From positions 1 through 52,217 of the IMG/VR virus record IMGVR_UViG_3300028400_000009: a DNA stretch of 52,217 nt; one strand, 5' to 3'. Source of the stretch: a virus (taxonomy: Duplodnaviria; Caudoviricetes). A program made the translations under genes and the position numbers. How positions within the stretch are numbered: the first letter of the stretch is position 1; every line of letters starts with the position of its first letter. Below are positions 7,934-52,217 of this stretch, piece by piece. The notes beneath the pieces are model-generated. The model did not search any database. It saw only the letters and a program-made list of their open reading frames with translations, and was not told the origin of the DNA.

Positions 7934-8898
7934 TTTTGCATGTGTCCCCACCGTTTTTTATAGCTATGTGTATGCGAATTAATTTTCTGCGTAGCATAAT
8001 TACATGCTTCTTCTGTTAACCCTATGTCAACCGCTCTGTAGACCTCGTTATCAACCCAATAATAAATAGCAGTCAATATACTGTGAGGTGCTTTCGCTAA
8101 TACATCAGCTCCTATTCTTAGAATTAAATCCCCATTTGTTTTTTCGTACAAATCAGGAAAGTTATTCAATAGCCAATCGTGGTATTTTTTCTGATTGTTT
8201 GTGCCTGTTAGCTGTATTCCACCACCACCACGAGTACGCCACCCGTCACCTGTTTCTGGTGCGCCGTTACCCATACGATTAGCATAGGCATTGTTAGCAA
8301 TAGCCATTTGATTCGCTGGATGCCCCTTGCATCTACCATCGCGCCACGGATTAGCAAAGCCATGCCTACCATACGCGCTAAATAGCTGAGGCAATACTTT
8401 GCACCGATAGTTAAGGTTTTCTTCTGTTATAAAGCCGGGTCCTGTTTCTTCTCTTATCTGAGAAACAAATAATATCCATTCTTCTGGTTTTGACAGATGA
8501 AACTCTTTTAAATATGGCTCAATATGTTTCAATGTTTCTTTGAATTGAGCTTGAGCTTTTTTTCTGCCGCCGTAGTTCCACATTGGCAACAATAAACGCG
8601 CCTTATCTCTATCAAATTCTTCTTGAGAGAATACTCTTTCGGGAGTAACAGCTTCCTCTACCCACGTTCCCGCATCTTTTGTGCGGTTGGCTATTAATTT
8701 AGCCCATGTTCCGACACCTACTATGCCATCTTGCGGTAATCCGTTTCGTGCCTGGAAGTGTTTAACCGCTGCCTCAGTACCTTTACCAAAAATACCGTCA
8801 ACGACATCCATTTTCAGCATCTTTTGCAACGCTCGGACTGTTAATCCATCGCGGTTAAACTTGCTCCTACTACCCATTCCTATTTGCAGATCAATCAT
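7909..8898 (-). CDS. endolysin: peptidoglycan-binding domain plus GH19-like glycoside hydrolase
   Basis: DGIFGKGTEAAVKHFQ..DGIVG PG-binding domain; EENLNY, ANRMGNG, GDGWRTRGGGGIQLTG GH19 motifs. Confidence 0.92.
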   Translation of the reverse strand: MIDLQIGMGSRSKFNRDGLTVRALQKMLKMDVVDGIFGKGTEAAVKHFQARNGLPQDGIVGVGTWAKLIANRTKDAGTWVEEAVTPERVFSQEEFDRDKARLLLPMWNYGGRKKAQAQFKETLKHIEPYLKEFHLSKPEEWILFVSQIREETGPGFITEENLNYRCKVLPQLFSAYGRHGFANPWRDGRCKGHPANQMAIANNAYANRMGNGAPETGDGWRTRGGGGIQLTGTNNQKKYHDWLLNNFPDLYEKTNGDLILRIGADVLAKAPHSILTAIYYWVDNEVYRAVDIGLTEEACNYATQKINSHTHSYKKRWGHMQKCKNLLGL

Positions 8899-9584
8899 AT
8901 TTTTACACCAGTTTGCACATAATAAGCCGCTTTGCATAACGACAAATGCGACTTAACATTTTTATAGTTTATCTTCTTAGCTAGTTTATACCAGAGATCA
9001 AGATCAAAATTATCGACGTACACCGCATCGCGCCATTTTGCACCACGCTGATCTTCTATTCTCTGGCATGTTTTAATTTCTTCGTATTGATGGTTTTTAA
9101 ATGATGTAATGTAAAAACCACTCTTTTCGCCTCCGCCAATACGCATATTATCAAGAAATACCCTGGCTGGCTTTGTGCCTCTACGGTTATTTACGTCCAT
9201 GATAGTACCGCTCAACAAACCACATATACTTACATCATGCTCTGATTTTGTAGTGATTCTTACGTTAGATATTTCTAAATTACGATAAGCACCATCACTA
9301 GAGAATATGCCCTGCATGGAACCATCAGAATATAGTGAGCAATTTGTTATTTTTACATTTTCTGAAATTTCGCCAAAATAACGCAAGTATGACTTTGTAG
9401 GTATTAACTGAATGAAATCACTATGAGGTTCAGCACGGCATATTTCATCTACGCAATGAACATCATGCAAGGTAATATTTGAGCCTATTGCTTTTACAGC
9501 ATCGTTTGATTCGCCTGGTGGTACATCATTAATATATTTACAGGTGAGTGTATCACCTGCTTCTAGAATATGTTTTTCGCCCAT
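8895..9584 (-). CDS. pectin-lyase-like parallel beta-helix protein
   Basis: HSDFIQL, ENVKITNC, QGIFSSDG, NLEISNV beta-helix-like rungs. Confidence 0.55.
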   Translation of the reverse strand: MGEKHILEAGDTLTCKYINDVPPGESNDAVKAIGSNITLHDVHCVDEICRAEPHSDFIQLIPTKSYLRYFGEISENVKITNCSLYSDGSMQGIFSSDGAYRNLEISNVRITTKSEHDVSICGLLSGTIMDVNNRRGTKPARVFLDNMRIGGGEKSGFYITSFKNHQYEEIKTCQRIEDQRGAKWRDAVYVDNFDLDLWYKLAKKINYKNVKSHLSLCKAAYYVQTGVKI

Positions 9585-9760
9585 AGTGGTGATTATACCA
9601 CAGTATATCCATTTTGGGGTATATGAGTGAATGTCAAATGTTATTTTTATTATTTATTAGTTGTTGCTATTGTTAATATCTGCGCTTTTGGATGCGCTTT
9701 AATAGTTTTTCCCCTGCAATGCTATGATTTGACGCATAGTATACCTTTTTTTGAATTGCA

Positions 9761-48378: not shown

Positions 48379-49059
48379 CTATTTTTTTATATACTTCTGC
48401 ATCCTAGCGTCAGCTTCATTGTTGATCCTTTCTTCGTCATACTCATAGCCAACCCAGTTATCAACTCCATTGGCTTCTAATTCAGACAGCTCAATATCAC
48501 TCTTCAATAGTCTTTTGAGTTCTGTGTATCCAATACTAACCTTTCCATCTGATTGAGATTTTAATAAACTCAATGCGTTTCTAGCTTTGCTAATTGATTC
48601 GTTTATTGAATCTAGCTCTTTCTTTGCATTAAGACATTTACGCTCCCATGCCTTTACTTCAGCATCAAAATCATTAATTTTTGCTTCGTGGGCTTTAATT
48701 TCACTTTCTAGTCCTATATTCTTCTCATTCAGTGTAGCGTTCAATGCCGATAATTTAGCTATGTGTTCTTGCAGTGGCTTAATCTGCAAGAACTCTACTG
48801 GTTCATCATGTAGTAAACGATTCTCCACCATGACTACAATAGATGCCTGTGAGTCGTTGATTATATCTATGACCTCCTGAGCTTCCACGCATGTGTGTCT
48901 TGTTGGTGTTCCTTGGTTTCCTACCATGCACTCAGTACACCACTGAGCACCCTCAAATTCATCAGCATATTTCGGTGTTAATTTAATCTCACTGAAATCA
49001 TCCGATACTTTTCTTATTATTACGCATGGGTTGTTCATGTAGTATTTTACGTTTTTCAT
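48379..49059 (-). CDS. coiled-coil protein with C-terminal LEANGVDNW.GY motif
   Basis: Motif recurrent in phage proteins; GAGG RBS. Confidence 0.65.
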   Translation of the reverse strand: MKNVKYYMNNPCVIIRKVSDDFSEIKLTPKYADEFEGAQWCTECMVGNQGTPTRHTCVEAQEVIDIINDSQASIVVMVENRLLHDEPVEFLQIKPLQEHIAKLSALNATLNEKNIGLESEIKAHEAKINDFDAEVKAWERKCLNAKKELDSINESISKARNALSLLKSQSDGKVSIGYTELKRLLKSDIELSELEANGVDNWVGYEYDEERINNEADARMQKYIKK

Positions 49060-49628
49060 AGTTCACCTCATTAATTTAACCCCACTATACCAGCCAACCA
49101 CGTTTTACTGTATACCCATTAAGGGGTAGGGTGGTTGTTATTTGCTCTCCTGTTTGTTTAGACAATAGCAAGGCATTAGAGGGGTTTAAGTGGTTTCCCA
49201 AGAAAACTAATCCTCTGTTTCTGTTATTTAATATGCGTGTATCAATACCAACCAATATATCAGGCTTCGTTATTTGTGTGCAAAACTTTCATTATTGCAT
49301 CGGGAACTGTACATCTAACCGTTTATCAACCATGTTCTTTTTTGCTGGCTCTCTAAAGTTTGCATGAATTAACTTAAACTTTAGCAGTCAAAAAATTATA
49401 CGAATTTAGGTTGATGGTGTATTACCACTTTTAAGTACCTGTTTTGTTCCGCAGAATTGCATAGATTAGCGGACGCTCCCCCTCTAGTCATTGTCTATGC
49501 GCGACTGGAACGGGTTGGATATTGTCTGCACTTGATCTCGCTCAAGCCGTTTTATTAATAGTTTAAGTCACTACTCGACAGGCGTAGGCGGTATTGAATG
49601 CTTGATTTAAGCAGATTTAGAAGATTAT

Positions 49629-49823: not shown

Positions 49824-50087
49824 ATGGATTTTGGAAAAGCGCTAGAAAATATAAAAGCAGGAATGAAGATGCAACGCGAAGGATGGAACGGGAAAGGCAT
49901 GTTTATCTTTCTTGTGCCAGGGTCAACTTTTAAAGTTAATCGCAAGCCGCTTCTTGGAATCTATCCAGAAGGCACTGAAATTAACTATCGCGGGCATATC
50001 GACATGAAAACGGCTGATGATATGGTTGTTCCGTGGCTTGCATCACAGACAGATATTCTTGCTGATGATTGGAAAGTGGTTGAATAA
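49824..50087 (+). CDS. DUF2829 / Tad2-like anti-defence protein
   Basis: MDFGKAL...REGWNGKGMFI...PWLASQTDILADDW. Confidence 0.88.
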   Translation: MDFGKALENIKAGMKMQREGWNGKGMFIFLVPGSTFKVNRKPLLGIYPEGTEINYRGHIDMKTADDMVVPWLASQTDILADDWKVVE

Positions 50088-50178: not shown

Positions 50179-50290
50179 GTTTCTGCAAATAACACGCAAA
50201 AGAAAACCCGCATAGACCGAGACAATCTAGCGGGTTTAAATCAACCTAAAAAGGCGCAGTCATGAAAGTAACTGCAAGACCATTATAGCA

Positions 50291-50593: not shown

Positions 50594-50684
50594 ATTTAAT
50601 CTCCTTTAAATATACGACTATACCAGCTCAAATCAATAACTAAATACCCACTATTGGGTATACTGTGCGCTTTTGGAGAAAGAT

Positions 50685-50891
50685 ATGAAATTTAAACTAA
50701 TCCTAGCATTTGAAAAAGAAAGTAGCACTACCACAAGAATAACACCCCAAGATGCAGCAAAATTGCTATCTCTGTGTGATGCAGAATTTCTTAGAAATAC
50801 AATGAAAGAACTTGAAATAGAGCTGATGCCTTTTGGCGAAAAAAGGCAGAAAGAGATTTATAGTATTTTAGGCAGTAAAAAATCCGATTGA
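50685..50891 (+). CDS. hypothetical protein
   Basis: GGAG RBS, divergent across the palindromic operator. Confidence 0.55.
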   Translation: MKFKLILAFEKESSTTTRITPQDAAKLLSLCDAEFLRNTMKELEIELMPFGEKRQKEIYSILGSKKSD

Positions 50892-51076
50892 GTTACTTAT
50901 GCTCAATCGGCTTAGTTTGCACATTGGGTAATGAGGTAGTGCTACCCCTAAGCTTTACGCTACTAATGCAAGACTTGTGAAAGCCTGTGCATCATTAGAA
51001 GCTTGACCGTAAGTTTCATTGCCATTTCAAGCAATATTAACTTTAGTTGCTGAGTAGCTGATGACTTCTACTCATG
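50877..51076 (-). ncRNA. tmRNA mRNA-domain-like RNA lacking a tRNA-like domain
   Basis: Extended -10, start-less frame GNETYGQASNDAQAFTSLALVA-stop, pseudoknot, terminator. Confidence 0.5.
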
Positions 51077-51185
51077 CGCTCATTATAACATCTATTAAAA
51101 CCAATTTCACATACCCACTATGGGGTATTTTAAAGATATTGTGGGCTGGTATTATTGGTGTATTGAAATTAAGATGTGGGAAATA

Positions 51186-51470
51186 ATGAGCATTTATGGG
51201 AGTTTAAAATATAGATTCGCAAGGGAAGCAGATGCGCTTTATGTGTACGGCAAAGGCGACAAGGACGGCGAGAAACCTCTGCTTTCATTTGAGTTATCAG
51301 ATGAAACACTGATAAGCCATAAATTTATGGCTCATTATGATATGTGGCGCATTAAAGGTGGGTATATAGTTAATATGGTGGATAACGAGTACACCATATA
51401 TTATGAAAACCCAGGAAATAGCCTAGAAGAAGACCTGGATAGATTAGACTTTTATCCAGAATTTACCTAG
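51186..51470 (+). CDS. hypothetical protein
   Basis: ORF; start uncertain. Confidence 0.55.
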   Translation: MSIYGSLKYRFAREADALYVYGKGDKDGEKPLLSFELSDETLISHKFMAHYDMWRIKGGYIVNMVDNEYTIYYENPGNSLEEDLDRLDFYPEFT

Positions 51471-51514: not shown

Positions 51515-51697
51515 TCGGTAGAAAACATCGGTAAATAGCTCAGTATGTCGGTTAACCGAGCAAAACAGAGTTAACCGAGCAAATTCTACCGAGCTACATG
51601 GTAATTTCTACCGACCAAATATACCCACAAAGGGGTATTTACCGATTATCAGAATCTCGGTAGTATCGGTTCTGAAATTAAACGAAAGGAGTTACAA

Positions 51698-52078
51698 ATG
51701 AATATTGATGATTTAACTATTGGGGAGGCTAGAGAAATCGCCTCTTTTTTTCAGCCAGTGGAATCTAATAAAGGGTTTAAAAATCCATTAATTGGTTCTT
51801 ATGTTCTTGTTAGAACGTATGCAAGCGGCGTCCACTTCGGAAAACTAATACAACATCAAAACCAAAACATTGTTCTTGATGAAGCAATAAGAATATGGAA
51901 ATGGAAAGCCAAAAAAGGTATTGCGCTTTCAGGAGTTGCAATGCACGGACTAGACATGGATTACGATAACAAATTAGATTCGATGACAAGTAACCATGTC
52001 ATTACTGACGCAATAGAAATTATTAAGTCTGATGTTTTGAAAAAGCAGTTAAATGAAATAGGAGAGTACAATGCTTAA
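51698..52078 (+). CDS. DUF6948-like protein, possible Sm/SH3-like barrel
   Basis: IGSYVLVRTYASGVHFGKL...NIVLDEAIRIWKW...LSGVA..G. Confidence 0.7.
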   Translation: MNIDDLTIGEAREIASFFQPVESNKGFKNPLIGSYVLVRTYASGVHFGKLIQHQNQNIVLDEAIRIWKWKAKKGIALSGVAMHGLDMDYDNKLDSMTSNHVITDAIEIIKSDVLKKQLNEIGEYNA

Positions 52079-52217
52079 CATACAAGTGTACTGGAAAACT
52101 GGCTCTGGCTCTGGCTCTGGCTATGGCTATGGCGATGGCTCTGGCTATGGCTATGGCGATGGCTCTGGCTCTGGCTATGGCTCTGGCTATGGCTCTGGCT
52201 ATGGCTATGGCTCTGGC
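52071..52217 (+). CDS. Gly-rich (GS/GY/GD) repeat ORF, truncated by window end
   Basis: GGAG RBS, MLNIQVYWKT then (G-S/Y/D)n. Confidence 0.5.
   Translation, partial: MLNIQVYWKTGSGSGSGYGYGDGSGYGYGDGSGSGYGSGYGSGYGYGSG
52101..52217 (+). repeat. GGC-NNT hexamer tandem array (19+ units)
   Basis: Only GGCTCT, GGCTAT and GGCGAT units. Confidence 0.95.

Follow-up and report, generated by a model that had tools for sequence, protein, structure and literature searches.

A predicted stand-alone small RNA gene with a start-less, tag-like frame carried by two different hydrothermal-vent phages

Prophages encode base-pairing small RNAs such as DicF, IpeX, and AgvB/AsxR, and the 6S RNA of phage lambda is 194 nt long. 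For Shiga-toxin phages, one report describes how a by-product transcript, StxS, works as a small RNA (PMC7547250). Phages also carry tmRNA genes: a survey of 18,146 phage genomes counted them in 402, placed the two-piece forms chiefly in marine phages, and noted ssrA fragments in prophages (PMC9004378), and phage DS6A is described as carrying the acceptor part alone, a similar molecule being an inhibitor of tmRNA (PMC4131195, PMC11915505). A non-exhaustive literature search returned no description of a form that holds only the frame. To our knowledge, no template-only RNA that manipulates ribosome rescue has been described.

The window (i.e., the whole stretch of DNA analysed here) is an entire IMG/VR virus record, IMGVR_UViG_3300028400_000009, with 52,217 bases, an estimated completeness of 58%, and about 37% G+C. 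It encodes a siphophage-like gene set that includes a DnaB helicase and an O-like replication protein, and no cultured phage has a large terminase that exceeds 43% identity to the one encoded here. One DNA sequencing run labelled hydrothermal-vent metagenome contains the stretch, as a single identical contig with no variants, and may be the source of the record; there was no RNA run among the sequencing runs listed as containing it. Near one end of the window, the original prediction had placed a tmRNA-like RNA with a tag-like frame and no tRNA-like domain, and all the letters and minus-strand coordinates were where it had claimed them. The features of this element, in the order of the RNA, are as follows.

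51082 to 51110, minus strand: sigma-70-type promoter (GTGAAA, 17-nt spacer, TATAAT, with the TG of an extended −10; 10 of 12 matches)
50877 to 51075, minus strand: predicted transcript of about 199 nt, its start inferred 7 nt past the −10 and its end at the T-run
51051 to 51074, minus strand: hairpin P1, 7 bp with a 10-nt loop that contains the invariant AGUCAUCA
51011 to 51043, minus strand: hairpin P2, formed by P2a (5 bp) and P2b (5 bp), with its loop within the invariant word TTGAAATGGCAA
50955 to 51023, minus strand: start-less frame of 22 codons and a stop, GGC...GCG TAA, reading GNETYGQASNDAQAFTSLALVA*, with a TGA before it at 51029-51027
50950 to 51004, minus strand: long irregular hairpin P3 (P3a, P3b, and apical P3d), which encloses most of the start-less frame
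50933 to 50948, minus strand: hairpin P4, 6 bp with a GCAC loop and an invariant core, GGTAGCACTACC
50909 to 50931, minus strand: invariant 23-nt block TTACCCAATGTGCAAACTAAGCC, mostly unpaired and identical in the window and the homologous record described below
50877 to 50910, minus strand: intrinsic terminator, a 9-bp stem and a 9-nt loop with an invariant TAAGTAA, then A and T6

The promoter had been predicted as TGnTATAAT and reads TGtTATAAT at 51090-51082 on the minus strand, to which our scan added the −35 hexamer GTGAAA and the 17-nt spacer. Likewise confirmed were the TGAGTAG/CTACTCA hairpin (the P1 stem, 51074-51068 / 51057-51051), the start-less frame with its upstream TGA, folded in a hairpin, and the terminator, whose stem of 9-10 bp (50910-50884) is followed by A and T6. 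Between window positions 50200 and 51700, terminator-like sites were enriched (4 vs 1.0 expected), and the promoter scan was not significant on its own (4 sites vs 4.6 expected).

A metagenome search with a 20-mer from the unpaired stretch led to one true homologue, on contig Ga0256831_1000168 (locus L018), which belongs to an IMG/VR record of 34,440 bases (79% complete, 40% G+C) that we read whole and refer to as G001. Window positions 51073-50878 and G001 positions 917-1107 are 74% identical, and this homology stretches from 2 nt past the predicted start, at the first hairpin, to the T-run, that is, over the transcript alone. The promoter regions do not align; G001 has a promoter of its own (TTGATC, 17 nt, TAGAAT with a TG, G001 881-909), with an extended −10 as in the window. 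The genes that flank the RNA are also unrelated between the two records. Given promoters that cannot be aligned and neighbours that differ, it is the transcript that is inherited as a unit, and since the similarity is limited to the transcript amid unrelated flanks, we consider the element to be a mobile RNA gene. Besides the RNA element, blastn found just two further segments shared by the window and G001, namely the N-terminal part of a lysis protein (67%) and a portion of an 833/852-aa protein that belongs to no known family (80%). A homologue that covers just the transcript supports the prediction that the RNA gene, at about 200 nt, stands alone between a promoter and a terminator of its own, and from this sequence comparison it is nearly certain that a real RNA gene of that size is carried by two different vent phages.

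Two members of the RNA family are known, and the samples they come from are apparently similar. Neither 50,697 phage records nor 72,556 plasmids contained a blastn match to the region, and a 28-mer pattern scan gave no loci. G001 was the only real locus among the 3 found with a 17-mer, the 27 found with a P4 pattern, and the 11 found with a 5′ pattern; chance matches across the seven pattern scans were called by blastn checks and reading. The other 20-mer match in metagenomes (L019) was also a chance one, as was the match in genomes on the same contig (L020), a 21-mer inside a 1168-aa ORF; about one such 20-mer match is expected by chance in that genome collection, according to our estimate. 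This 21-nt exact match to the invariant block (L020 1169-1189 / L019 10755-10775) comes from a Cyclobacteriaceae MAG, where it is oriented like the RNA. A protein search baited with the translation of the antisense strand returned four candidates, none of which scored.

Both RNAs are predicted to fold stably: the 209-nt window RNA reaches −60 kcal/mol (z = −3.7) and the G001 RNA −57.3 kcal/mol (z = −3.1), and none of the 200 shuffles folded as well in either case. Helices were also located by hand in both sequences, and P1, P2a, P2b, P3a, P3b, P3d, P4, and the terminator recur. P1 keeps 6 of its 7 pairs in G001, with one A-C mismatch; one P2 pair is altered on both sides (A-U to C-G); P4 has 6 pairs in the window and 9 in G001, with one pair altered on both sides (G-C to A-U) and another on one side; and the 9-bp terminator stem is kept, followed by T6 in the window and T5 in G001. 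The architecture of P3 is the same with different letters, the insert within P3b being 24 nt in both, and apical P3d is wholly rewritten in G001, still with 6 bp and a tetraloop. RNAalifold on a MAFFT alignment gave 42 consensus pairs, 11 of them altered on both sides, in an alignment whose P3 part is uncertain; the firm compensatory pairs are one each in P2b and P4 and three each in the terminator and P3b. The first 21 nt of the invariant block have a mean unpaired probability of 0.73 in the window and 0.59 in G001, and this stretch of 21-23 nt is a candidate seed or binding site.

The pseudoknot that had been predicted downstream of the frame finds no support in the homologue. The complementary words GGGTA/TACCC, GCAC/GTGC, and GCTTAG/CTAAGC do exist in the window, yet in G001 GGGUA of the first stem is changed to AGGUA, leaving 4 pairs, and the outer helix GCUUAG/CUAAGC is reduced to GCUU/AAGC. 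The simple hairpin P4, which is the rival of the pseudoknot with its GCAC loop, instead grows from 6 to 9 pairs and covaries. Upstream of the frame, no pseudoknot was found. The hypothesis that the element has no function at all, and that a chance open frame merely coincides with a chance promoter-terminator pair in an intergenic spacer, agrees with promoter-like sites being no commoner here than in shuffles. It is scarcely credible in the face of the transcript-exact homology amid otherwise unrelated context, the compensatory pairs, and the fold z-scores of both copies.

The window copy converges on a 68-aa plus-strand gene (50685..50891), which has its stop codon within the terminator stem that the two share, and diverges from another plus-strand gene (51183..51470). 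Nearby are a Tad2-like Thoeris anti-defence gene (49824..50087, plus strand) and a gene for a protein of 226 aa that matches the T7 gp5.9 RecBCD inhibitor at its C-terminal end (48379..49059, minus strand), so the RNA gene sits in an anti-defence and early accessory region of the window. The 68-aa and 95-aa neighbour proteins had no relatives in viral contigs, and for the latter a set of 5.8 billion proteins gave only its own 116-aa form. Longer contigs with the window phage were seen, one of 54,681 in the sequencing run and one of 59,943 that contains the 116-aa protein. Within the converging 68-aa gene, GTAGCACTACC at 50724-50734 (plus strand) equals 11 letters of the P4 core of the RNA, which may be chance. 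Plus-strand translation of the element as a type I toxin was considered and dropped, as a promoter was absent and the ORF was not conserved.

Back-to-back promoters of the RNA gene and of 51183..51470 enclose a palindrome that recurs in the window.

51112 to 51127, no strand: 16-bp palindrome TACCC-N6-GGGTA, flanked by the promoters of the RNA gene and 51183..51470 (plus strand), which stand back to back
12001, 19608, 49113, 50645, 51112, and 51622: six palindromes of 16 bp each, intergenic, with variants at 9606 and elsewhere

The copy between the two promoters reads TACCCCATAGTGGGTA. The pattern has 9 matches at 6 window loci vs 0.08 expected. At 49113 (minus), 50645 (minus), 51112 (plus and minus), and 51622 (plus), the palindrome is accompanied by a −10-like hexamer at a distance of 22-24 nt; at three of these five promoter-facing sides, the hexamer sequence reads CTGGTAT. 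Since these palindromes lie at promoters beside −10-like hexamers, the RNA gene would belong to a co-regulated promoter set in the window, and the palindrome has the look of a site bound by a single phage regulator, which may control at least five promoters. None of these palindromes occurs in the G001 record, and the 15 loci that the pattern found elsewhere were all chance matches.

On its 5′ side, the G001 element is preceded by a YbcO nuclease gene and then a resolvase-like gene whose stop codon lies in P1; on its 3′ side, a lysis gene, the small and large terminase genes, and the remaining plus-strand ORFs follow on the same strand. This slot corresponds to the PR′-tR′ place of lambdoid phages, where an always-active PR′ that is terminated just downstream gives a short regulatory RNA, as described for Shiga-toxin phages (PMC7547250). 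With a strong promoter and a terminator about 200 nt downstream, ahead of lysis and late genes, the G001 copy is similar to lambda 6S and StxS, and the RNA might be the terminated promoter-proximal transcript of an antitermination-controlled late operon that may double as a small RNA. We consider this quite improbable, as such a role fits G001 but not the window, where the copy lies in the early region, converging on 50685..50891 (plus strand) and followed by genes with their own promoter, and where the lysis homologue (8895..9584) has its own promoter 41 kb away. Compared with 6S and StxS, the element has a different position in the window phage, shows no sequence likeness, with neither an Rfam match nor a blastn match in the 50,697 phage records, and has no Q gene seen next to it; beside the G001 element, in a contig that begins just 917 nt upstream, no Q-like or antiterminator gene was seen. 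Moreover, a plain leader need not preserve sequence and helices across unrelated contexts. A search with the Rep protein yielded one lambdoid contig (L002), which is without the RNA element.

The element is similar to the messenger part of tmRNA (SsrA; RF00023 and the two-piece forms) in having a short frame without a start codon that carries an AND...aromatic motif and ends in hydrophobic Ala/Leu/Val residues, in the placement of this frame partly in a hairpin that closes past the stop, and in being a structured RNA with its own promoter and terminator. The window frame has an in-frame TGA two codons upstream and contains no ATG, GTG, or TTG. The frame is open in G001 as well, where it is preceded by a TGA, is 3 nt shorter, and reads GKNFLGMKPANDSSFEMALVA-stop, ending ANDSSFEMALVA-stop, so that both frames end ALVA-stop, and in both phages it lies in a hairpin that closes just past the stop. 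The in-frame TGA, the first GGC codon, and an ATG in another frame all fall within the invariant word TTGAAATGGCAA. Conservation of tag frame and pseudoknot among homologues had been proposed as a check, and in the sole homologue the tag frame stood (open, with its ALVA-stop) and the pseudoknot pairs were lost. A start-less tag frame with an Ala-rich tail, as expected of a tmRNA, is thus present, and ALVA is a candidate degron.

Several statistics single out this frame. Among all six-frame stops, AL[AV]A-stop occurs once in the window (1 of 6525) and once in G001 (1 of 3887), each time at this frame, and the pattern [AS]ND..[FY]..ALVA-stop was likewise found only there in both records; the two patterns were composed after the frames had been seen. 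When frames were ranked blind by similarity to the E. coli tag ANDENYALAA as printed by ARAGORN, the G001 frame came first of 2100 and the window frame fifth of 3412, the G001 frame being the more tag-like. The last 15 nt of the frame differ at four bases between the window and G001, all of them silent, an outcome reached in 0.003 of trials under random changes for one frame and about 0.01 when three frames are allowed for. The middle of the encoded peptide is not conserved, and the silent-change and ALVA arguments overlap and are based on one pair of sequences.

Nevertheless, the phage RNA is not a tmRNA. ARAGORN found no tRNA or tmRNA gene in the window (58% complete) or in G001 (79% complete) while it detected the E. 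coli and G002 tmRNAs used as controls, and a T-arm pattern scan gave no sites in either record and one in the E. coli ssrA control, which agrees with the predicted lack of a tRNA-like domain and leaves no acceptor piece found by these scans elsewhere in the record. Acceptor stem, T-arm, and CCA are absent from both phage records at these levels of completeness, and neither the window nor the G001 record has an SmpB or SspB gene. Rfam returned no matches at the gathering score for the window or G001, and at E<=10 the five weak matches to window 50600-51300 included no tmRNA family. Nucleotide similarity to the E. coli tmRNA was at chance, with 57-68 of 300 shuffles scoring as well, and a 12-nt likeness to its positions 33-45 was also at chance level; the proposed kinship with tmRNA in sequence and structure is therefore not supported. 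Unlike tmRNA, the element also has no covariance-model match and no supported pseudoknots, is about 200 nt long vs 363-405 nt for the two tmRNAs compared, and has a frame that ends in VA, not AA.

The invariant block shows a likeness of 20-24 nt to the tmRNA of a Bacteroidota MAG (positions 328-351), with a score reached by 3 and 16 of 300 shuffles, and in a scan of both phage records with Bacteroidota tmRNA the block was the best locus in G001 and the third-best in the window. The same likeness is absent for the E. coli tmRNA, and these sequence comparisons do not support kinship of the block with Bacteroidota tmRNA. Shine-Dalgarno-like words precede 45% (window) and 35% (G001) of long ORFs vs a background of 4-8%, and because they are frequent in both phages, the Bacteroidota MAG is an unlikely host. 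An ssrA fragment captured at an attachment site was rejected as an explanation, with no acceptor end present and no integrase among the ORFs scanned, which were part of those in the window.

These data allow us to weigh the idea that the RNA is a stand-alone messenger part that mimics tmRNA, decoded with an acceptor arm supplied in trans or acting as a decoy for factors that bind the tag region. The acceptor arm could come from the host or an unsequenced part of the phage, and phages have been reported to meddle with ribosome rescue (PMC9004378, PMC4131195, PMC11915505). The frame inside its closing hairpin, the shared ALVA-stop that is unique in each record, the tag rankings, the silent differences (p about 0.003 for one frame), and the length difference of 3 nt all argue for it. 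On balance, we regard this mimicry as unlikely: acceptor stem, T-arm, and CCA are missing in both records, no Rfam tmRNA appears even at E<=10, the element resembles the E. coli tmRNA no more than shuffled sequences do, the homologue loses the pseudoknot, the peptide varies in its middle, and the supporting statistics overlap, come from two sequences, and partly use patterns set post hoc. We also know of no mechanism that loads a template into the ribosome without a covalent or base-paired acceptor arm, and no route supports the proposed decoding of the start-less frame without one. It is likewise doubtful that the RNA is a "tag template without an acceptor arm", with its ALVA-ending frame under peptide-level selection, either for being read on rescued ribosomes with an acceptor arm supplied in trans or for mimicking the tmRNA tag region and so diverting host rescue and tagging factors during infection.

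The phage-borne, partial likeness to tmRNA is shared with the acceptor-only ("TLD only") mini-tmRNA of DS6A, and both could interfere with ribosome rescue in the host. Genes of the DS6A type, however, have a tRNA-like part and no frame, whereas the present RNA has a frame-like part and no tRNA-like part, making it their mirror image, and they are recognisable tmRNA homologues while the present RNA is not. A second look is warranted, as the start-less frame behaves like a coding frame in the sole comparison and resembles an ssrA degradation tag. If more homologues agree, phages would manipulate ribosome rescue and protein tagging by means of a template-only RNA, which, if true, would be the missing counterpart of their acceptor-only mini-tmRNAs.

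The same frame statistics could point to a small-peptide gene with an unconventional start, whose product of 15-22 residues ends in ALVA and feeds or clogs ClpXP-type proteases, and in G001 an in-frame ATG would give MKPANDSSFEMALVA. This is very unlikely, since the window frame lacks not only the usual start codons but any codon one base from ATG, and the G001 ATG has only AGG, one base upstream. A conserved ATG in the P2 loop opens another frame, of 20 codons in the window and 5 in G001, and no shared frameshift, read-through, or hop was found to lead into the tag frame. For a frameshift from this ATG, G001 alone offers a possible site, UUC-UAG; reading through the TGA ahead of the frame was dropped for want of a start codon upstream, and so was a hop from the upstream gene of G001, which has no counterpart in the window.

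The explanation that we favour, with a probability of roughly one half, is that the element is a self-contained phage gene, mobile by horizontal transfer, whose product is a structured small RNA acting in trans. The RNA would be an early product, expressed in the window phage alongside the palindrome-controlled promoters, and would be stabilised by hairpins P1-P4 and the terminator. Its invariant block of 21-23 nt would then pair with a host or phage RNA, or hold a protein, as in phage small RNAs of the Hfq type, and the invariant loops may also contribute. The tag-like frame inside P3 would not be decoded, and its persistence would be a by-product of RNA-level constraint and chance. Consistent with this explanation are the strong promoter, the intrinsic terminator, and five helices kept across two phages with unrelated flanks, the absence of a start codon in the tag frame, and the lack of a tRNA-like part, SmpB, and SspB in either record. 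Both phages also have, as predictions, the own promoter and U-run terminator expected of an Hfq-type small RNA. Arguing against it, the frame is open in both copies with a length difference of exactly 3 nt, which is unexpected if it is never read, and the all-silent last 15 nt and the rank of 1 in 2100 in G001 are unexpected of an unread frame. The evidence for the RNA comes from two sequences.

Like the base-pairing small RNAs of prophages, the element is an autonomous promoter-terminator cassette in an accessory region, with a conserved single-stranded stretch adjoining a U-run terminator. Unlike most of them, it is large (about 200 nt, four hairpins), and its Rfam match to AsxR reaches just 18 bits (E 5.5) on the opposite strand. 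A complementarity scan of both phage genomes gave the antisense strand of the element itself as the sole outlier, and scanning the whole RNA for duplexes with start regions was uninformative. As a plain small RNA, the element would add one more well-defined, portable RNA gene family, from deep-sea vent phages, which is useful but ordinary; its helices are clear, the candidate seed is obvious, and a set of promoters would be co-regulated with it.

Other parts of the window also showed features worth recording. Ahead of the lysis-region gene 8895..9584, the promoter reads TTGACA ... TGgTATAAT, and the −10 hexamer lies just 6-7 nt before the ATG (window 9588-9640, minus strand; L052 1115-1135, plus strand). 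This short spacing is common to the window gene and its G001 homologue, which suggests that the mRNAs of these lysis-region genes are leaderless or nearly so. A TnpB-like gene with OrfB_IS605 and Cas12f1-like TNB domains lies inside the phage (5498..6598, plus strand). Between 51480 and 51680, ahead of a DUF6948 gene (51698..52078), TCGGTA/TACCGA words are dense in both orientations, and two exact 14-nt direct repeats, GTTAACCGAGCAAA, lie at 51551 and 51570; this array looks iteron-like or protein-binding. The record ends (52071-52217, plus strand) within an ORF of Gly-Ser-Gly-Tyr repeats, and this repeat probably broke the assembly of the window record.
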